A stretch of 64,000 nt of DNA from Actinomycetes bacterium (GCA_038145175.1 JAYQPE010000004.1:111206-175205), one strand, 5' to 3'; numbered from the stretch's first letter, positions 6,835 to 16,633 are shown. A program made the numbers and translations. The notes: generated from the letters alone by a model not told the origin.

Positions 6835-7698
6835 ATGGAAGAAATAAAATCAGTTGAATCTTTAACAAAACAACTAAAACAAATTGGCTATATTGCCGAC
6901 AGAGGGCTTTCAACTTCTATTTTAATTTCATTAAAAATGGGACGTCCCCTGCTTTTAGAAGGAGAAGTGGGAGTAGGAAAAACTGAACTAGCAAAAGCTC
7001 TTGCAAAATTATTTAATCGAGAATTAATCCGTTTACAGTGTTACGAAGGCATTGATACTAATCAAGCATTATACGAATGGGATTATGCTCGACAAATACT
7101 TGAAATTCGAGCCATGAATGAAACAGGAAATAAAAAAAATGAAGTAGACAAACTTTTCAGTGAGAAGTTTTTAATTGAAAGACCATTACTTTCTGCCATC
7201 AGAGCAGGGGATAAATCAGTATTACTTATTGATGAAATTGACCGAGCAGATGATGAATTTGAGGCATTTTTACTCGAATTACTATCAGATTTTCAAATAT
7301 CAATTCCTGAAATTGGAACTATTAAAGCAAAAACTAAACCCATAATTATTTTAACTTCAAATCGTACTCGTGAACTTCATGATGCTCTAAAAAGACGTTG
7401 CCTTTACAACTGGATTGGTTTTCCCAGTGTTGAGCAAGAATTAGAAATAATTAGGAGTCGCATTCCTGATGTAACAGAAAAATTAGCTTCTAAAGTTGTT
7501 GAGGCAGTTAATCGCCTTAGAGAAATGGAATTAGAAAAATCACCTGGTGTCGCAGAAGCTATAGATTGGGTTTCCTCATTGCAGGCAATTCAGGCAGATG
7601 ATTTAACCGCTGAAAGTGCCATGGATAGTTTAGGTGCAATTTTAAAAGACCGAAGTGATATAGAAACTGTTAAAGAAAATCTTCAAGAAATAGTTTAA
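6835..7698 (+). CDS. coxD: MoxR-family AAA+ ATPase, CoxD-like CODH maturation chaperone
   Basis: Walker A LLLEGEVGVGKT, RLQCYEG, Walker B LLIDEIDRAD, TSNRTRELHDALKRRC; paired with a vWA protein inside a cox island. Confidence 0.9.
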   Translation: MEEIKSVESLTKQLKQIGYIADRGLSTSILISLKMGRPLLLEGEVGVGKTELAKALAKLFNRELIRLQCYEGIDTNQALYEWDYARQILEIRAMNETGNKKNEVDKLFSEKFLIERPLLSAIRAGDKSVLLIDEIDRADDEFEAFLLELLSDFQISIPEIGTIKAKTKPIIILTSNRTRELHDALKRRCLYNWIGFPSVEQELEIIRSRIPDVTEKLASKVVEAVNRLREMELEKSPGVAEAIDWVSSLQAIQADDLTAESAMDSLGAILKDRSDIETVKENLQEIV

Positions 7699-7699
7699 A

Positions 7700-8833
7700 G
7701 TGTCTTTTGATTCAACATTTGAAGAACTATTTGTCGAATTTGGAGATTTATTACGCAAATCTGGCCAATCAATTGGTTCCGACGATATTTTAGTTTTTTG
7801 TGATGCCGTTTCTAAATTAAATCCTTCTGATCTTGTTGATATTTATTGGTCAGGTCGATCAACGTTAATTCATAAAAAAGATTCTATTCCAATTTATAAT
7901 CAAAAATTTAGGGAATTTTTTTTAAATGCTGAATCAATCTCTAATGATCCTAGAAAAAAGAAAATTCAAGCCACTTCCATAGCGACTGCTACTTTTGAAA
8001 TTCCAGAAGTTGAAGAAGGAACACCGGGTGAAGGTGAAGAAGAAGAAAAAAAGATGGGTTTTGTTTCTTCTACAACAGATATTTTTAGATCAAAAGAATT
8101 TAAAGATTGTTCTCCCGAAGAGCTTGCCAAAATGCGACAGATGATGAATGTTTTTAAATTATCTCCTCCTGAGAGAAGAACTAGAAGATATCAACTTAAA
8201 AAAAATGGAAATAAATTAAGTATGAGAAATATTGCTAAACAAGTTATGAGAAATCATGGAGAAATCGATGAACTAGTTTATGTAAGTAAAAAAAGAAAAC
8301 TTAGACCAATCGTTTTTATATTAGACATTTCTGGTTCAATGGCTGATTATTCTCGAAATCTTTTACAATTTGCCCATGCTGCACGCAGCGCCCATGAAAA
8401 AGTAGAAGTTTTTTGTTTTGGTACCAGACTAACTCGTATTACCAAAATTTTGGACCATAGATCACCAGATGAAGCAATGAAAATTGCTGGTAATGCAGTT
8501 TTAGATTGGGATGGTGGTACTCGAATTGGTGACTCTATCGAAACTTTTTTAAAAAAATGGGGCCGAAATGGAACCAGTAGAGGAGCTATAGTGGTTATTT
8601 GTTCTGATGGTCTTGATCGAGGTGATCCTCGAATTTTATTTGAAGCTATGGAAAGATTATCAAGATTAAGTTACAGAATTTTATGGATGAATCCTCATAA
8701 AGGTGATCAATTAAATTTTAAACCCAACACCATGGGTATGATTGTGGCAGATCCATTTATTGATCAAATTGTTTCTGGCCATAATTTGAATAGTTTAAAA
8801 GAATTTACTAAATCATTAGTTAATTTAAGATAA
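7700..8833 (+). CDS. coxE: vWA-domain protein, CoxE-like
   Basis: MIDAS DISGS, EVFCFGTRLTRIT, WDGGTRIG, SDGLDRG; directly follows coxD. Confidence 0.9.
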   Translation: MSFDSTFEELFVEFGDLLRKSGQSIGSDDILVFCDAVSKLNPSDLVDIYWSGRSTLIHKKDSIPIYNQKFREFFLNAESISNDPRKKKIQATSIATATFEIPEVEEGTPGEGEEEEKKMGFVSSTTDIFRSKEFKDCSPEELAKMRQMMNVFKLSPPERRTRRYQLKKNGNKLSMRNIAKQVMRNHGEIDELVYVSKKRKLRPIVFILDISGSMADYSRNLLQFAHAARSAHEKVEVFCFGTRLTRITKILDHRSPDEAMKIAGNAVLDWDGGTRIGDSIETFLKKWGRNGTSRGAIVVICSDGLDRGDPRILFEAMERLSRLSYRILWMNPHKGDQLNFKPNTMGMIVADPFIDQIVSGHNLNSLKEFTKSLVNLR

Positions 8834-8850
8834 AAAGATAGGAGAATACA

Positions 8851-9153
8851 ATGAAATTTAGTGTTTCAGTTTTTGCCGAAGGTGACAAAGAAATTTCTTT
8901 ATCAGAGATTGTGGAATTTGCAGATGCAGTAGCTCCACTTTCAGGAATTGCCTCTGGTGCAGGAAGTATGTCTTATGGAGCACAACTAGTTATTGAAGCC
9001 GAGAATTCAGATCTTGCAGTTGAAAAAGCGATTGTCGCATTTACAGAAGCAGCAAAATTAGCAAAATTACCTAGCTGGCCGGTTACAAAGGTTGAAACAA
9101 TCTCTGAAGTTGAAGATTTTGAAGACGAATACATAGGCGATGATCAGCCTTGA
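8851..9153 (+). CDS. hypothetical acidic small alpha/beta protein
   Basis: GGAGA SD, 100 aa, operonic with coxE and overlapping the next gene; no family recognised. Confidence 0.7.
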   Translation: MKFSVSVFAEGDKEISLSEIVEFADAVAPLSGIASGAGSMSYGAQLVIEAENSDLAVEKAIVAFTEAAKLAKLPSWPVTKVETISEVEDFEDEYIGDDQP

Positions 9154-9584
9154 TTCGATTAGGTTCTTTAGCAGGTTATGCATTTGAAGGTCCCAGAGTT
9201 TTAATGGGTTGGAGTCCACCAACGATTCCTGGTGTTTATGCAATTATGTCCAGATCAAATCCCAAAAATAAACCTCAACAATATTCTGTTATTTACGTAG
9301 GCCATGCAGAAGATCTTTCCCAAATTGGTTTTCCCTTAAAACATCCATATGCCCAGTCTTGGATCAAAAGATCTGGGGACAAATTTAATCTTTTTGTCTG
9401 CTATCTAGAAATTCTAGGTGGAACAGTTGCCCACCGCGAACAAATATCAAAAGAATTACAATCAATTTATAAACCAAGTTGCAACGATGAAGTTTACGAT
9501 AAAGCGTGGAAAGATGAATGGATCGGCGAATACAACTCAATAACGACAGATCCACTTACTACTAATCGTGATCCAAATCTTTAA
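9150..9584 (+). CDS. GIY-YIG-like domain protein
   Basis: PGVYAI ... IYVGHAEDL and a C-terminal ELQSIYKPSCN match the GIY...YIG and E..I..P..N pattern. Confidence 0.6.
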   Translation: MIRLGSLAGYAFEGPRVLMGWSPPTIPGVYAIMSRSNPKNKPQQYSVIYVGHAEDLSQIGFPLKHPYAQSWIKRSGDKFNLFVCYLEILGGTVAHREQISKELQSIYKPSCNDEVYDKAWKDEWIGEYNSITTDPLTTNRDPNL

Positions 9585-9941
9585 TTAATCAGCTTTTAGA
9601 CCAATTCCTTCGAATTGTCTCGAACGTCGAACTCCCATTGCTGGACGAGCAGGTTCTGGTTTACTGTGATCTGGTTTATATGTTGCGCCAACCACAATGC
9701 CTTCTGCCATTCCATAGAGCAAAGGTAATGCACCTGCCACAACTCCACCTGTTCTATTAATTCGTTTTAGAGCAGGTTCAATGACTTCTGCGTTTCCTTT
9801 AATCTTCCAAACTAAGTCGGCTGCTTCTTCTAAATTTGTAGCAACTTTTTTTAATTGGATTCCTACAATTAACAAATAAATTGCAAGTCCTGCGATTAAA
9901 GCAACTATGTCAATTATTGTTAAAATAATTAATGTTCTCAT
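9585..9941 (-). CDS. small single-pass membrane protein, cox-array member 5
   Basis: N-terminal TM plus amphipathic heptad helix and a C-terminal extension; ATGA overlap with member 4. Confidence 0.8.
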   Translation of the reverse strand: MRTLIILTIIDIVALIAGLAIYLLIVGIQLKKVATNLEEAADLVWKIKGNAEVIEPALKRINRTGGVVAGALPLLYGMAEGIVVGATYKPDHSKPEPARPAMGVRRSRQFEGIGLKAD

Positions 9942-10228
9942 GAGCGCACCTTATCCAATACTCTGCCTAAGAAAAGATGATGTTGAAGACCTTCTGCTAA
10001 AACTCCATCAACACCTTCAGATACATCTGTTAATAATTTTGCATTTGCAGTATTTGCTTCAGCAGTTGTCAAAGTTGCTTTGATTGCTTTAACCCGCTTA
10101 TCTATCCTGCGAACTAAAATAACCAAAATTGTCAGCAATGCTGCAACAGCTAGAACTACAACAAATCCTAAAACAATTGCTGCAGTCCAAAGTGTTACTA
10201 CTGTTTCTGAAAGAGTTCCTGAATCCAT
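9938..10228 (-). CDS. small single-pass membrane protein, cox-array member 4
   Basis: GGAGG SD; TM, then RRID...NTAN heptad helix. Confidence 0.8.
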   Translation of the reverse strand: MDSGTLSETVVTLWTAAIVLGFVVVLAVAALLTILVILVRRIDKRVKAIKATLTTAEANTANAKLLTDVSEGVDGVLAEGLQHHLFLGRVLDKVRS

Positions 10229-10230
10229 TT

Positions 10231-10488
10231 CTAACCTCCCAATCTGTTTCTGCCTCGTTTGAGCCCATCAATTATTGATGTTGCAAAGGCAATAGTTGTT
10301 TTTAAATCTTTTAAAGGTGCAGTGTTAGTTGCTGCATTTACTAAACCGTCGTTTATTTTCCCAGCTTGTCCGCCAATTCGATAAGCAAGTAAAAGAATCG
10401 GAACGACTAGCGCCACCACTACGAGCACCACTACCAAGCCAATAAAAAATCCTAAAGCCCAACCAGTATGTCCACCAAAAATACTCAT
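10231..10488 (-). CDS. small single-pass membrane protein, cox-array member 3
   Basis: AAGGAGA SD; TM, then YRIG...NTAPL heptad helix. Confidence 0.8.
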   Translation of the reverse strand: MSIFGGHTGWALGFFIGLVVVLVVVALVVPILLLAYRIGGQAGKINDGLVNAATNTAPLKDLKTTIAFATSIIDGLKRGRNRLGG

Positions 10489-10496
10489 ATGTCTCC

Positions 10497-10724
10497 TTAA
10501 ATTGTTTCTGCAAAATCTCGAACGGGTTTAAGACTTGAATTAACGGCAGGAACTGCTGCAGGAACTGGAGAAGTTTTAGCGGCAATAACTTGTACCCCGC
10601 CATCTAGTGCATCTAAAGTTTTTGCCACAGCTCGAAGATGACCTATGACTCGACTTAAACCTAAGGCAGCTGCGGCAATTATTAATGTCGCAAGTACCAA
10701 AGTCACAATTGCTACGGTTGGCAT
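10497..10724 (-). CDS. small single-pass membrane protein, cox-array member 2
   Basis: GGAGA SD; TM, then LRAV...KTSPV heptad helix. Confidence 0.8.
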   Translation of the reverse strand: MPTVAIVTLVLATLIIAAAALGLSRVIGHLRAVAKTLDALDGGVQVIAAKTSPVPAAVPAVNSSLKPVRDFAETI

Positions 10725-10733
10725 TTTGTTCTC

Positions 10734-10988
10734 CTATCCCAATAATTTGGCAACTGAGCCTGCGTATCTCACAGCTCCATTTGCTACATCTGAAATAACA
10801 GCACCTGTTTCATTTAGCAATTCAGGAGTGTTGTTAATTTCTCCAATTAAGGCAACTCCGCCTTCTAGTGCGTCATCTGCTGCTGATCGAATTCGCTCAA
10901 GTGAACCTAAAACTAGATTCAGTAAGGCAATTAGCACAGGAACAATCACAACCAACAAAACTAAATTTCCTATAGCCCATAAAGACAT
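10734..10988 (-). CDS. small single-pass membrane protein, cox-array member 1
   Basis: GGAGA SD immediately after the coxG stop; TM, then ERIR...NNTPEL heptad helix. Confidence 0.8.
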   Translation of the reverse strand: MSLWAIGNLVLLVVIVPVLIALLNLVLGSLERIRSAADDALEGGVALIGEINNTPELLNETGAVISDVANGAVRYAGSVAKLLG

Positions 10989-11000
10989 GTTTTATTTCTC

Positions 11001-11588
11001 CTATCTTCTTTGTAATGGTTTGTAGGGAAAAAAGAATCTGCCAAACACACGCACTGCTGCTCTTTTGAAAGCATTGAAACCAATTGCTAATCCGCTTGCT
11101 GCTTTTGGTCCAGCTACAGTATTTGGATCAAGTCCTAAAGAAATAGCACGTATTCGAGCTTGAGCGCTACTTGCTGTTTGATTAACTAAGACTGCGGTTA
11201 CGTCGTTAATTAAACCTCTACCATATTGAGCTGCCGCACCTGAAACTTGCAAATCCAGCGCAATAGTTGCTTTAGTGCCTCCACCTAATGAAGCTAAATT
11301 AATAGTTAATAGTGCATCAGCATTTCCGCGACCTTTTTTATCTGCACCTTTAGCATCTATAACTGTTACCTTTTTGGCTACATCGCGATTAACAATTTTG
11401 GCTACACCTGCAAATTCCAATTTCACTGGTCCTGCAGAAATGATAACGTCACCTTCATAGGATCCATCGGGCATTTGATTAGTTAAATTTGCACCTGGAA
11501 TACAAGGTGCTACTTGAGATAAATCACCAAAAAAATTCCATACTGAATCGATTGGTTGATCTAGTTCAATTACTTGCGAAATTATCAT
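11001..11588 (-). CDS. coxG: CoxG (SRPBCC/START-fold) CODH accessory protein
   Basis: VAPCIPGA, KGADKKGRGNA, VSGAAAQYGRGLINDV signature; downstream of coxL. Confidence 0.9.
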   Translation of the reverse strand: MIISQVIELDQPIDSVWNFFGDLSQVAPCIPGANLTNQMPDGSYEGDVIISAGPVKLEFAGVAKIVNRDVAKKVTVIDAKGADKKGRGNADALLTINLASLGGGTKATIALDLQVSGAAAQYGRGLINDVTAVLVNQTASSAQARIRAISLGLDPNTVAGPKAASGLAIGFNAFKRAAVRVFGRFFFPYKPLQRR

Positions 11589-11589
11589 C

Positions 11590-12543
11590 TTATCTCCTTT
11601 GCGCTAAGAATGAAGTTGGATTTTTTTCAAACGATGTCCTACAGCCAGGTGCGCAAAAATAAAAAGTATTTCCTTCATATTCAAATGGTCTATTTGATTT
11701 TTGCGCCAAAACGGTCATGCCACATACTGGATCAATTACTTCAGCTACTTCAGAAGTTTTGATTTGAGAATTCGTAACCTTTGCAAATTCTCCTAAAGCA
11801 CGTAATTTAACTAACTCTGCAAGAATTGACACAGCCATTTCTCTATGAGTGGTGTGACCCAAATCTAAGCCCACTGGAATTTTGACTTTTTCTATTTTTT
11901 CAGGCGCAATTTTTTTACTTGCCAGATAATCAAGGACAACTTGTCCACGCTTTTTAGAAGCTACCACACCTATAAATACTGGTGAATTATTTAGAGCAGT
12001 TTCTACTGCTTCTTCGTCACCATGACCTTGTGTTGCAACTACAACTATTGAAGATTCTGAAACCATGTTGCTCGTAAAATCTTCTACATCAACTAAAGTT
12101 ACATTCCAATCAAGATTTTGAATTAAAGTTGATAATGTTACTGCCATTGGTGAGCGTCCAACTATTAAAACTTGAGGCACTTTCAACATTGGTTCAATAT
12201 AAATTTGTAATGCCCCATCAGATTGACAAGAAATTGGTATAGCTAACACTCCATCTGGAATATGTAGTCCTGCAAATTCAGCTTCTTGACCCAACCAAAT
12301 AAGTTTTGCTTTACCTTCTGCTAAAACCTTTTTTGCTTCTTTAATTAAGACAGGTTCTGCGCAAGCACCACCAATCCAACCAAATATTTCACCTGATTCT
12401 GTAACAATTGCTTTTGAACCGCTTTGTCCTGAAGATGGTCCTTGTCGCCACACAACTGTTGCCATGACAAATGAGTGACCTTGATTTGTCAGTTCAACAG
12501 CACGTTGTATTACGCCAATTCCTTCAACAGCGTGATTATTCAT
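11590..12543 (-). CDS. XdhC/CoxF-family maturation protein with C-terminal YHS domain
   Basis: WIGGACAE, ISCQSDG, ATQGHGDE, PVGLDLG; C-terminal DPVCGMTV...FYFCAPGCRTSF (YHS/TRASH). Confidence 0.88.
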   Translation of the reverse strand: MNNHAVEGIGVIQRAVELTNQGHSFVMATVVWRQGPSSGQSGSKAIVTESGEIFGWIGGACAEPVLIKEAKKVLAEGKAKLIWLGQEAEFAGLHIPDGVLAIPISCQSDGALQIYIEPMLKVPQVLIVGRSPMAVTLSTLIQNLDWNVTLVDVEDFTSNMVSESSIVVVATQGHGDEEAVETALNNSPVFIGVVASKKRGQVVLDYLASKKIAPEKIEKVKIPVGLDLGHTTHREMAVSILAELVKLRALGEFAKVTNSQIKTSEVAEVIDPVCGMTVLAQKSNRPFEYEGNTFYFCAPGCRTSFEKNPTSFLAQRR

Positions 12544-14924
12544 TAATCACCAACTCGAACTGGAGGCATTCCTGATATATCACGGCCTTCATGAATAGCG
12601 GCATAAACACGATCTGGAAGTAATGGCATATCAATATTTCTTACCCCAAAACCTTTAACTGCATCCATCACTGCGTTAACAAATGCAGCTGGACCTCCAA
12701 CCGTGGCACATTCACCAATTCCTTTAGCCCCAATTGGGTGATGTGGACATGGTGTTACAACTTCATGTAATTCAAATCCTGGAGTTTCCCAAGCAGTTGG
12801 TAGTAAATAATCCATGTAATTTGAACCAACACAATTTCCTTCTTCATCAAAAGTAATAAATTGCATACTTGACATTGCATAAGCTTCAGTTAATCCACCC
12901 ATGATTTGTCCTTCAACAATCATTGGATTAATGCGCACTCCACAATCATCAACCGCAACTACTTTTAATACATCCCACACACCAGTTTCTGGATCAACTT
13001 CAACTGTGGCAATGTAACAAGCAAATGGCCAAGTTAGATTTGGTGGATCATAATAAGAAACATTTTCTAGTCCAGGTTCCATTCCATCTGGCATATTTGT
13101 GTAAGCAGCTACAGCACATTCTTGAATGGTTACACCTTTATCTTTAGCACCTCGGACAAAGAATCGACCTAGTTCCCATTCAATATCTTCCTCAGATACT
13201 TCTAATAAGTGTGCAGCTAATTTTCTTGCTTTTGCTCTAATTTTTCTTGCCACCATGGCAACAGCAGCACCGGCGACAGGTGTAGATCTTGACGCATAAG
13301 TTCCCATCCCAAATGGGGCTGTATCTGTGTCACCTTCTTCTACCACAATGTCATCGGCAGGAATGCCTAATTCATGTGCAACTATTTGAGCCCAAGTAGT
13401 TTCATGTCCTTGCCCTTGAGATTTAGCACCAGTACGAAGTAATGCTTTACCAGTAGCATGTACGCGAAGTTCAGCAGAGTCAAACATTTTTATTCCCAAA
13501 ATGTCATATTCTCTTGAATTTCCCGCGCCAAGTGGTTCTGTCATTGTGGATATACCAATTCCTAATAATTTTCCACGCTTGGCTGCTTCTGCTTTTTGTT
13601 TTAAGAAATCTTTATAGCCAATAGCTTCTAATCCAATATCTAAGCATTTTCCATATTGACCAGAATCCGTTAAAAATCCAAATGGGGTTCTATATGGAAA
13701 CATATCGTCTTTCACAAAATTGATACGACGAAATTCAGCTTGATCCATACCAATATCATCAGCTGCTGCTTGCATCATTCTTTCTTGGAAAAACATTGCT
13801 TCAGTGACGCGGAAAGAACATCTATAAGCAACCCCACCTGGTGCTTTATTTGTATAAACTCCTGTAGCTGTTAGATGAGCAACAGGAATGTCGTATGCAG
13901 CAAATGCTGAATGCATCAAACCTATTTTAAATTTACTTGGTTGAGCATCAGAAAAAAATGCACCTTGATCTGAAGTTGTGTGCATGCGAATACCTAAAAT
14001 TTTTCCATCTTTTCGCATTGCAACTTGACCTTTCAAATACACATCTCTTGCAAAATGTGTTGAAATCAAATTTCCTGATTTATCTTCAATCCACTTCACA
14101 GGTTTCTCAGTGAGAATTGAGGCAAGAATTGAAATTACATAACCTGGATAAACTGGCACCTTGTTGCCAAATCCTCCACCTAAATCTGGTGAAATAATTC
14201 GAATTTGATGCTCAGGAAGTTCTGCAACTAAAGCAACTGCTGCACGAATAATGTGTGGTGCTTGAGTTGTCATGTAAACAGTTAATTTGCTGGTTGCACG
14301 ATCAAAATCTGCAATTGAACCACAAGTTTCCATTGGTGATGGATGTGATCTTGGATAGTGAAGTTCTAAATTTGAAATTTTGTCTGCAGCAGCAAAAGCT
14401 TTATCTGTACCAGCTTTATCGCCAATTTCCCAATCGTAAACATGATTATTTACTTGACCACTTTTATCATCACGAATAACTGGTGCACTTGGCTCCATTG
14501 CTTGGAAAGGATTTACTAATGCAGGTAAAGTTTCATAATCAACTTTAATTTTCGCAACAGCATCTTTAGCAATATATGGATCATCTGCCACTACCGCAGC
14601 AACTTCTTGACCTTGAAAACGAACTTTATCCGTAGCTAAGACTGCTTGTGTGTCATAAGACAACGTTGGCATCCAAGCTAAATTTCTAGCAGCCATCATT
14701 TCACCGGTTAAAACTAAACGAACTCCTGGAACTTCCCAGGCTGCACTAACATCAATTGATTTAATACGCGCATGCGCTACAGGACTTCTTAATATTTCCA
14801 TGTGCAACATGCCAGGAAGAACTATGTCATCAACATAATTTCCTTTACCTCTAAGAAATCTGTTGTCTTCTACTCTTTTGCGGCTTGCACCCATTCCACC
14901 TATTTTTATTTCATCTATTGTCAT
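12543..14924 (-). CDS. coxL: aerobic carbon monoxide dehydrogenase large subunit, form I
   Basis: Form I active-site loop VAYRCSFR with the Cu-ligating Cys; QGQGHETT, GTYASRS, AKGIGE motifs; M-S-L gene order. Confidence 0.96.
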   Translation of the reverse strand: MTIDEIKIGGMGASRKRVEDNRFLRGKGNYVDDIVLPGMLHMEILRSPVAHARIKSIDVSAAWEVPGVRLVLTGEMMAARNLAWMPTLSYDTQAVLATDKVRFQGQEVAAVVADDPYIAKDAVAKIKVDYETLPALVNPFQAMEPSAPVIRDDKSGQVNNHVYDWEIGDKAGTDKAFAAADKISNLELHYPRSHPSPMETCGSIADFDRATSKLTVYMTTQAPHIIRAAVALVAELPEHQIRIISPDLGGGFGNKVPVYPGYVISILASILTEKPVKWIEDKSGNLISTHFARDVYLKGQVAMRKDGKILGIRMHTTSDQGAFFSDAQPSKFKIGLMHSAFAAYDIPVAHLTATGVYTNKAPGGVAYRCSFRVTEAMFFQERMMQAAADDIGMDQAEFRRINFVKDDMFPYRTPFGFLTDSGQYGKCLDIGLEAIGYKDFLKQKAEAAKRGKLLGIGISTMTEPLGAGNSREYDILGIKMFDSAELRVHATGKALLRTGAKSQGQGHETTWAQIVAHELGIPADDIVVEEGDTDTAPFGMGTYASRSTPVAGAAVAMVARKIRAKARKLAAHLLEVSEEDIEWELGRFFVRGAKDKGVTIQECAVAAYTNMPDGMEPGLENVSYYDPPNLTWPFACYIATVEVDPETGVWDVLKVVAVDDCGVRINPMIVEGQIMGGLTEAYAMSSMQFITFDEEGNCVGSNYMDYLLPTAWETPGFELHEVVTPCPHHPIGAKGIGECATVGGPAAFVNAVMDAVKGFGVRNIDMPLLPDRVYAAIHEGRDISGMPPVRVGD

Positions 14925-15462: not shown

Positions 15463-16335
15463 TTATGCTGCTACCTTTCTTTGATTTAAATTATTTAGAA
15501 TTCTTGTCACAAAAGTTGAAACAATTTGACGTTTATAACTTGCACTACCTCGATTGTCTGTGCGAGGTTCAGCAGAAGCTGCAGCTAATTGTGCAGCTTT
15601 TGCAATATTTGTTTCATTCAATGATTGACCTTCTAAAGATTTCGCTGCATCAGCGGCATTAATTGTTTTTCCACCTACACCGCCTAAAGCAATTCCTGCT
15701 CTATGAACTTTGCCATTGACCATATCTAGTGAAACCGCAACTGAAGCAGTTGCAAAATCACCAACTCTTCTTTCAAGCTTTAAATATCCACCTAAGTTTT
15801 CACCTTTGAATGCAGGTACAACTGCCTCGATCGCAATTTCGTTAAATTCCATTGCATTTGTAAATGGACCAGTAACGAAATCTGTCATTGGTATTTCTCT
15901 TTTACCTTTTGGTCCTTGAACTACTAAATATCCATTAGTGGCGATCATGGTTGCTGCCCAATCGCCTTGGGGGTCGGCATGACAAACAGAACCAACAAAA
16001 GTTCCGCGAGCACGAACGATTGGATCAGCAACCAAATGTGCAGCTGCTGCAATTGTTGGTTGTGCAGCTTTAATTATTTTCGATTTTTCTAAATCTTCAT
16101 GTCTGCATAAAGCACCAATTCTAAAAGAACCGTCTTCAGCGACCCGGTGATAATTCAATCCTGGAATATTATTTATATCTACTAACATTTCTGGAGCAGC
16201 AAATCTTAATTTAAGCATTGGTACTAAACTTTGTCCTCCGGCAATAATTTTTGCTTCACCTTTACCAGCAGTCAGTAATGAAATCGCTTCTTCAATAGAT
16301 TTTGGTGCTTCATATTTAAATCTACTTGGATACAT
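15463..16335 (-). CDS. coxM: CODH medium (FAD) subunit
   Basis: AGGQSLVPMLKLR, VRARGTFVGSVCHADP, KLERRVGDFA. Confidence 0.95.
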   Translation of the reverse strand: MYPSRFKYEAPKSIEEAISLLTAGKGEAKIIAGGQSLVPMLKLRFAAPEMLVDINNIPGLNYHRVAEDGSFRIGALCRHEDLEKSKIIKAAQPTIAAAAHLVADPIVRARGTFVGSVCHADPQGDWAATMIATNGYLVVQGPKGKREIPMTDFVTGPFTNAMEFNEIAIEAVVPAFKGENLGGYLKLERRVGDFATASVAVSLDMVNGKVHRAGIALGGVGGKTINAADAAKSLEGQSLNETNIAKAAQLAAASAEPRTDNRGSASYKRQIVSTFVTRILNNLNQRKVAA

Positions 16336-16381: not shown

Positions 16382-16633
16382 TTACTTTTTTTTCTTCTTG
16401 CCACGTTCATCAGCAACTGCAGTTGGTTCATCTGCACTATCTGGATCTGGTCTTTTTTCTTGATGTGGTGGCCATGGTCCTTTAACAGGTTGTCCTGCAA
16501 CTTTTAGATATTCAGTAATTTGTGGCCACGCCCAAATAGTTGGACTATCACCTTTTTTTGGAGAGTTTTCAATTAGCTCAAAAAATCTTGGATTACCTTT
16601 TTCTTTACCGGTTGATTCAAAAGCCATTGTCAA
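16382..16633 (-). CDS. hypothetical protein heading the coxMSL operon
   Basis: AAGGAG SD, 83 aa, 46 bp upstream of coxM on the same strand; Trp/Pro-rich core. Confidence 0.7.
   Translation of the reverse strand: MTMAFESTGKEKGNPRFFELIENSPKKGDSPTIWAWPQITEYLKVAGQPVKGPWPPHQEKRPDPDSADEPTAVADERGKKKKK

Follow-up and report, generated by a model that had tools for sequence, protein, structure and literature searches.

Five small membrane proteins encoded behind coxG in an actinomycete CO dehydrogenase cluster match the HylTM1-5 proteins of group 1l [NiFe]-hydrogenases

The window, a 64,000-nucleotide stretch of DNA from an Actinomycetes bacterium (GCA_038145175.1 JAYQPE010000004.1:111206-175205), carries a cluster for a form I Mo-Cu CO dehydrogenase (CODH) that ends in five consecutive small genes, here called S1 to S5. 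On the basis of profile comparison, their products are the CODH-linked orthologues of HylTM1-5, the proteins encoded by five small genes between hylS and hylL in group 1l hydrogenases (Ortiz et al., bioRxiv 10.1101/2020.08.06.239558). A preliminary description, made from the sequence of the window alone, had taken the array for an undescribed module specific to CODH; neither part of that claim survives, since all five are homologous to HylTM1-5 (hhalign 98.7-99.7%) and most of the distant homologues lie in hydrogenase clusters, with a few in other contexts. What is new is CODH as a partner of this known HylTM-type module. No paper tying HylTM-like genes to CODH was found; the literature searched treats HylTM only with group 1l hydrogenases, and the surveys of CODH gene clusters within it do not mention HylTM proteins. 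The match to HylTM1-5 suggests that S1-S5 probably tether the soluble CODH to the membrane quinone pool. How electrons are handed over to that pool from soluble high-affinity CO- and H2-oxidising enzymes is a live question, answered structurally, to our knowledge, only for the Huc hydrogenase, via HucM, and for mycobacterial CODH, via a CoxG anchored by a transmembrane (TM) helix. A five-protein module shared by Mo-CODH and the group 1l hydrogenase would indicate a common, transferable coupling device, and its CODH version is found in very abundant aquatic and soil Actinomycetota.

The genes of the locus, by position in the window, are:

6835-9584, plus strand: coxD, coxE, a 100-aa acidic protein and a 144-aa protein; convergent block, conserved with the array
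8851-9584, plus strand: within that block, the 100-aa acidic and 144-aa proteins, downstream of coxD-coxE
9585-9941, minus strand: S5, 118 aa; hhalign 98.7% to hydrogenase-linked S5; by profile, the orthologue of the third hyl small gene
9938-10228, minus strand: S4, 96 aa; hhalign 99.4% to hydrogenase-linked S4; by profile, the orthologue of the second hyl small gene
10231-10488, minus strand: S3, 85 aa, single-pass TM; hhalign 99.7% to hydrogenase-linked S3; by profile, the orthologue of the first hyl small gene
10497-10724, minus strand: S2, 75 aa, single-pass TM; hhalign 98.7% to hydrogenase-linked S2; by profile, the orthologue of the fifth hyl small gene and a paralogue of S5
10734-10988, minus strand: S1, 84 aa, single-pass TM and helical tail; hhalign 99.5% to hydrogenase-linked S1; by profile, the orthologue of the fourth hyl small gene (HylTM4 if the proteins are numbered by gene order)
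11001-11588, minus strand: coxG, SRPBCC quinone-shuttle homologue
11590-12543, minus strand: xdhC/coxF-like maturation gene with a YHS domain at the C-terminus
12543-14924, minus strand: coxL, form I Mo-Cu CO dehydrogenase large subunit; AYRCSFR motif; TIGR02416
14934-15461, minus strand: coxS
15463-16335, minus strand: coxM
16382-16633, minus strand: 83-aa Trp/Pro-rich protein (p83), upstream of coxM; conserved in type A clusters, those arranged as in the window

With 1106.5 bits on TIGR02416 (cut-off 991.15) and an AYRCSFR motif, CoxL is placed in form I; coxM, coxS and coxL are accompanied by coxG and by accessory genes of the coxD/E/F type. The arrangement first described, five minus-strand ORFs of the lengths listed with gaps of no more than 9 bp, is confirmed from the sequence: S1 begins 12 bp past the coxG stop, the next three intervals are 9, 8 and 2 bp, and S4 and S5 share an ATGA overlap (-4 bp). 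GGAG-type Shine-Dalgarno sequences lie ahead of S1, S2, S3 and S4, in agreement with the four individual sites and one overlap reported at that time. No terminator-like sites were found on the minus strand between 9585 and 11000, and this, together with the spacing, suggests that S1-S5 are co-transcribed with coxG. The S5 stop codon abuts the stop of the convergent 144-aa gene (TTAATTAA). The 83-aa, 100-aa acidic and 144-aa proteins have no Pfam match. Nearly every type A locus whose flank reaches far enough has a homologue of the 83-aa ORF upstream of coxM, as do genomes G402 and G422; the genes for the other two are conserved together with the type A array in most of the 80 metagenome loci described below, and run convergent to it in nearly all.

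Chance does not account for the five-gene array. All five genes were predicted independently by the JGI and ENA pipelines, 0 of 5 with a Pfam match, and the array is kept in the same order behind coxG in another genus (G022), in another family (G030) and in more distant Actinomycetota (G245, G399, G402, G422), other classes included. Between the window and the nearest metagenome loci, amino-acid identity is 51-82% and dN is 0.15-0.39; synonymous sites are saturated in 21 of the 24 comparisons, so that dN/dS could be computed for only three of the 24, with values of 0.04-0.20. S5 has 4337 relatives at E<=0.001 in a large protein collection, all of the named ones being called "hypothetical" or plainly mis-named; organism names among these relatives include Nanopelagicaceae and Ilumatobacteraceae. 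One close S5 homologue, P0013, is labelled "Nitrosomonadaceae bacterium" at NCBI and has a sequence of Nanopelagicaceae type; it is probably from a mis-binned or mislabelled MAG contig.

Metagenome contigs were also scanned with an S5 alignment, which gave at least 600 matches, and 80 loci were kept. The synteny of these 80 is near-invariant: p83-coxM-coxS-coxL-xdhC/YHS-coxG-S1-S2-S3-S4-S5, then the convergent GIY144-like gene, the acidic-100 gene, coxE and coxD. Of the 44 metagenome loci that extend far enough upstream, 42 have the array directly behind coxG, and coxL was found in 34 of 34, so that the array, as had been proposed, is a conserved and co-inherited part of this form I CODH operon.

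Each of the five proteins has a single strongly hydrophobic 19-mer near its N-terminus (Kyte-Doolittle value, KD19, 2.65-3.43), with at most one Lys or Arg before it and basic residues after it, on which grounds an N-out/C-in topology is predicted. Hydrophobic periodicity beyond the TM helix is strongest at 100-105 degrees in four of the five; that of S4 has its maximum at 120 degrees and is nearly as strong at 105. These values uphold the common design of N-terminal TM helix, basic boundary and periodic helix that was attributed to the set, and the motifs quoted for it (NNTPE, KTSPV, NTAPL, NTANA and GNAEV) are all present; the "NT" is almost invariant in the S4 family. S1 and S2 lie in one reading frame, with 4 residues between them if read through, and modelling the pair as a stop-codon read-through fusion to mimic a multimer was rejected, because the N-out/C-in topology makes a 4-residue linker meaningless.

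The AF2 monomer of S4 is one continuous 93-residue helix (pLDDT 82). Its C-terminal motif EGLEHHLFLGRVL is conserved, residues 79-95 (E-GL-HHLFLGRVL-KVR) being invariant among 48 type A S4 sequences; this stretch could be a ligand or contact site, and hydrogenase-linked S4 proteins usually have a single His at the position of the type A HH (e.g. EALKHDELL). For S5, AF2 gives a confident TM and stalk helix over residues 2-50, then, with low confidence, a second, Gly-rich hydrophobic helix (AGALPLLYGMAEGIV) over an invariant AGALPLLY segment, and last a disordered tail that bears a conserved PAMGxRRSR motif and is missing from the hydrogenase-linked S5 proteins, which are about 87 aa long. Such monomer shapes would be expected if the proteins are subunits of a stalk and depend on partners.

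Searches of S1-S5 against Pfam, NCBIfam, PADLOC and PHROGs yielded no match above threshold, the weaker ones being TM or coiled-coil noise, and no cofactor- or quinone-binding motif is known in the five. Neither the S5 tail nor the CoxG tail showed convincing similarity to the conserved C-terminal extension of HylS. Profile matches in the PDB were to designed coiled-coil barrels and adhesin stalks and were treated as compositional, not as homology; the best matches of the S4-family alignment, to sc-apCC-4 and sc-apCC-6 (designed single-chain antiparallel coiled-coil barrels, dye-binding variants included), are of this compositional kind.

The link to hydrogenases comes from arrays that lie away from coxL, which were reached through weak S5 matches in other Actinomycetota. 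One of these, L039, encodes between the S1-S2 pair and the S3-S4-S5 triad both subunits of a [NiFe]-hydrogenase, small and large, together with two HycI-type proteases, and most of the others resemble it. The large subunit of this type is closest to the group 1h structure 5AA5, yet clearly distinct from it, and an alignment of such subunits led to 79 loci from many phyla; among the carriers of the hydrogenase-linked set are the named isolates Geodermatophilus chilensis, Pseudonocardia kunmingensis and Haloechinothrix halophila. With HMMs of the S families, the order HylS-S3-S4-S5-S1-S2-HylL, which agrees with that published for HylTM1-5, was found in at least eight phyla: Chloroflexota, Acidobacteriota, Gemmatimonadota, Rokubacteriota, Planctomycetota, Verrucomicrobiota, Bacteroidota and Pseudomonadota. 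Each cox-linked family pairs with exactly one hydrogenase-linked family at the hhalign values given above. If the HylTM numbering follows gene order, S3, S4, S5, S1 and S2 would be HylTM1-5, and the window order, TM4-5-1-2-3, is a circular shift of the hyl order. The all-against-all profile comparison suggested in the preliminary description shows paralogy within the array, but not the one uniform set that it implied; the five divide into two older groups, {S1,S3,S4} and {S2,S5}, each member of which has its own hydrogenase-linked counterpart. Two of the hydrogenase-linked loci (L043 in G226 and L047 in G413) each hold two arrays and two divergent 1l-type large subunits, with one S3-S4-S5 triad directly after a large-subunit gene.

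How the module is shared between the two enzymes was followed in a sample of 401 Actinomycetota genomes, 82 of which have form I coxL and 35 the S4 family. HylL was counted as 1l-type at 728 bits or more if full-length, or as a recognisable partial copy; group 1h scores 575-640 bits. By this measure it is present in 21 genomes, all 21 of them S4-positive, and in 20 of the 21 the array and HylL are on one contig, within about 12 kb. Fourteen S4-positive genomes are without 1l HylL, and in 11 of these the array lies within 10 kb of form I coxL; the other three are G279 with an orphan S3-S5 triad, G246 with short contigs only, and G056 with a weak match. The co-occurrence with form I coxL, suggested earlier as a check, is found in 11 of the 35 S4-positive genomes, and 20 have the array beside 1l-type HylL. 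As no S4 family occurs outside the 35, a group 1h enzyme as the sole such hydrogenase brings no array. The 1.33-Mb genome to which the window belongs (G000) has no [NiFe]-hydrogenase and no PF00374 match, and G030, G245 and G399 likewise have the array and no [NiFe]-hydrogenase; in these four the module therefore cannot serve a hydrogenase. Among 151 Chloroflexota genomes searched, eight are S4-positive; six of the arrays adjoin 1l HylL and none of the eight genomes has a CODH-linked one.

A few arrays or triads have neither CODH nor hydrogenase nearby: the G279 triad (L051), three extra arrays in G196 (L158, L159, L160), G560:C35 and G569:C2. Their neighbours include a PAS-SpoIIE protein, an AMP-binding enzyme, a penicillin amidase and a DUF255 thioredoxin-like protein; no redox partner was found in the inspected neighbourhoods of the G279 triad and the three extra G196 arrays. 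In G422, two larger S-like paralogues (191 and 198 aa; L052, 8508-9782) lie directly downstream of the array, in each of which a TM helix precedes a long N-, T-, I- and S-rich stretch.

A second CODH-linked type, type B, has the order S3-S4-S5-S1-S2 and lies directly upstream of coxM in G183, G408 and G265, and 2-6 kb upstream of it in G196, G243 and G320. These arrays belong to a different CoxL clade from type A:

L143, 5117-6818: type B array
L149, 5251-7036: type B array
L150, 5254-6962: type B array
L155-L157: type B arrays

In type B the long extension is on S2, not S5, and brings the protein to some 200-250 aa; VYTRG.L.LARLGRE and PRSP.IG are among its conserved blocks. The accompanying CoxG is short (130-172 aa). 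In a tree of the sampled form I CoxL proteins, the enzymes with type A and type B arrays form separate clades, each with 100% support, and the midpoint root falls between them. A tree of concatenated S3, S4 and S5 likewise separates the two cox-linked types into clades of 100% support, and these are nested among actinobacterial hydrogenase-linked arrays (94-95% support). Most simply read, the trees point to at least one recruitment of the module out of hydrogenase clusters, probably two, followed by inheritance together with the enzyme.

Over its SRPBCC domain the CoxG of the window aligns with 8UDS, the structure of CoxG from M. smegmatis (E 6.7e-25). In mycobacterial CoxG a TM helix at the C-terminus provides the membrane anchor (Kropp et al., 10.1101/2024.01.09.574806; PDB 8UDS). 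The window protein has no such helix, its maximum KD19 over the last 60 residues being 0.85; the maximum never exceeds 1.49 in 42 type A orthologues, and the C-terminus has instead a conserved amphipathic ASGxxIG...RVFxRFFLPYxP in 42 of 42 loci. Nine of the ten CoxGs from array-free form I clusters do have a C-terminal TM helix (KD19 1.9-3.1, ending ...LLRRRR), whereas it is absent from CoxG in all array-linked clusters. The exception is G319 (L152), an array-free relative of the type A clade with a CoxG that is also TM-less. As the array-linked clusters make up two independent clades only, the contrast is no more than suggestive.

Taken with the homology, these observations make it fairly probable that S1-S5 make up a membrane stalk, a heteropentamer, on which CoxMSL/CoxG would dock for the delivery of electrons to menaquinone. 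The five proteins would insert N-out/C-in, and their long cytoplasmic amphipathic helices would pack into a single heteropentameric stalk or tube; soluble CoxMSL/CoxG docked on it could then pass CO electrons to menaquinone, which the stalk may itself conduct. The lineage-specific additions, the S5 tail in type A and the S2 extension in type B, may act as enzyme-specific adaptors. The hetero-oligomeric helical anchor or quinone stalk of the preliminary description is partly supported: it fits the predicted AlphaFold model of the hydrogenase-linked homologues, in which HylTM1-5 form an intertwined tube-like scaffold that anchors HylLS to the membrane (Nat Commun 2026, PMC13554262), and the window CoxG has no TM helix of its own. 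Two natural experiments offer themselves: clusters whose CoxG has a TM anchor can be compared with those that combine a TM-less CoxG and the array, and S5-tailed arrays with those in which S2 is extended. Tentatively, the docking stalk may be extended to a portable five-subunit "trace-gas coupling stalk", a heteromeric alpha-helical tube whose hydrophobic lumen would extract menaquinone; in Actinomycetota it would have been used first with group 1l hydrogenases and then attached at least twice to Mo-CODH, where it would replace the TM anchor of CoxG, with the S5 and S2 tails as adaptors.

A different emphasis would make the stalk chiefly a hydrophobic tube by which menaquinone is extracted from the bilayer and passed to CoxG or the FAD site of CoxM in the one enzyme and to the distal FeS cluster in Hyl, in functional convergence with HucM. 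The occurrence of one module on two unrelated quinone-reducing enzymes would suit such a tube, as would the designed alpha-helical barrels, some of them dye-binding, that are the best PDB matches of the S4 profile, a similarity of composition only; but S1-S5 have no sequence relation to DUF1641/HucM, and CoxG is already a quinone shuttle, next to which a second conduit may be redundant, and we regard this reading as rather unlikely. That S1-S5 are assembly or maturation helpers, holding for example the apo-enzyme at the membrane for delivery of metal or cofactor, and not subunits of the working enzyme, is improbable. In favour of it, their neighbours are maturation genes (xdhC-YHS upstream, convergent coxD and coxE), HycI proteases are encoded close to the hydrogenase-linked sets, and a metal could be bound by the invariant HH of S4. 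Against it, the metals and the maturation machinery both differ between CODH (Mo-Cu) and Hyl (NiFe), in most phyla the genes lie between two structural hydrogenase genes, and the proteins have no transporter-like features. An autonomous membrane module, acting as a channel or in stress or in the envelope and sharing no more than its location with these operons, would account for the arrays and triads without neighbouring CODH or hydrogenase in G279, G196, G560 and G569, but is most improbable given the near-perfect adjacency elsewhere (the 34/34 and 42/44 loci and the 20/21 genomes with a 1l hydrogenase), the agreement of array clades with CoxL clades, and the tight packing behind coxG, which suggests translational coupling.

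The docking stalk favoured here can be set beside three known systems. HucM is a helical stalk that joins the soluble group 2a hydrogenase Huc to membrane menaquinone, and is a homo-oligomer of one protein. The window set would resemble it in concept only, as a putative helical stalk between a soluble enzyme and membrane menaquinone, and, unlike that homo-oligomer, consists of five different single-pass proteins; S1-S5 have no match to DUF1641 (PF07849) at E<=1, and PDB profile searches with the S families did not find HucM chains. With mycobacterial Mo-CODH the window shares form I CoxMSL and a homologous CoxG SRPBCC domain, but its CoxG lacks the C-terminal TM helix and ends in the amphipathic RFFLPY tail, and the mycobacterial-type clusters sampled are, unlike the window, without an S1-S5 array. 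The third system, HylTM1-5, differs from the window set in setting and in detail: S1-S5 lie behind coxG of a form I Mo-CODH, in a genome without hydrogenase and outside any 1l cluster, S5 has an extra conserved tail, and S4 has the EGLEHHLFLGRVL motif where the hydrogenase-type C-terminus is shorter (e.g. EALKHDELL). In other respects the two sets are alike: both consist of five short ORFs with one predicted TM helix each, they match one to one in profile comparisons (made with hyl loci of many phyla), and both lie beside a soluble, cytoplasm-facing, quinone-reducing trace-gas enzyme.
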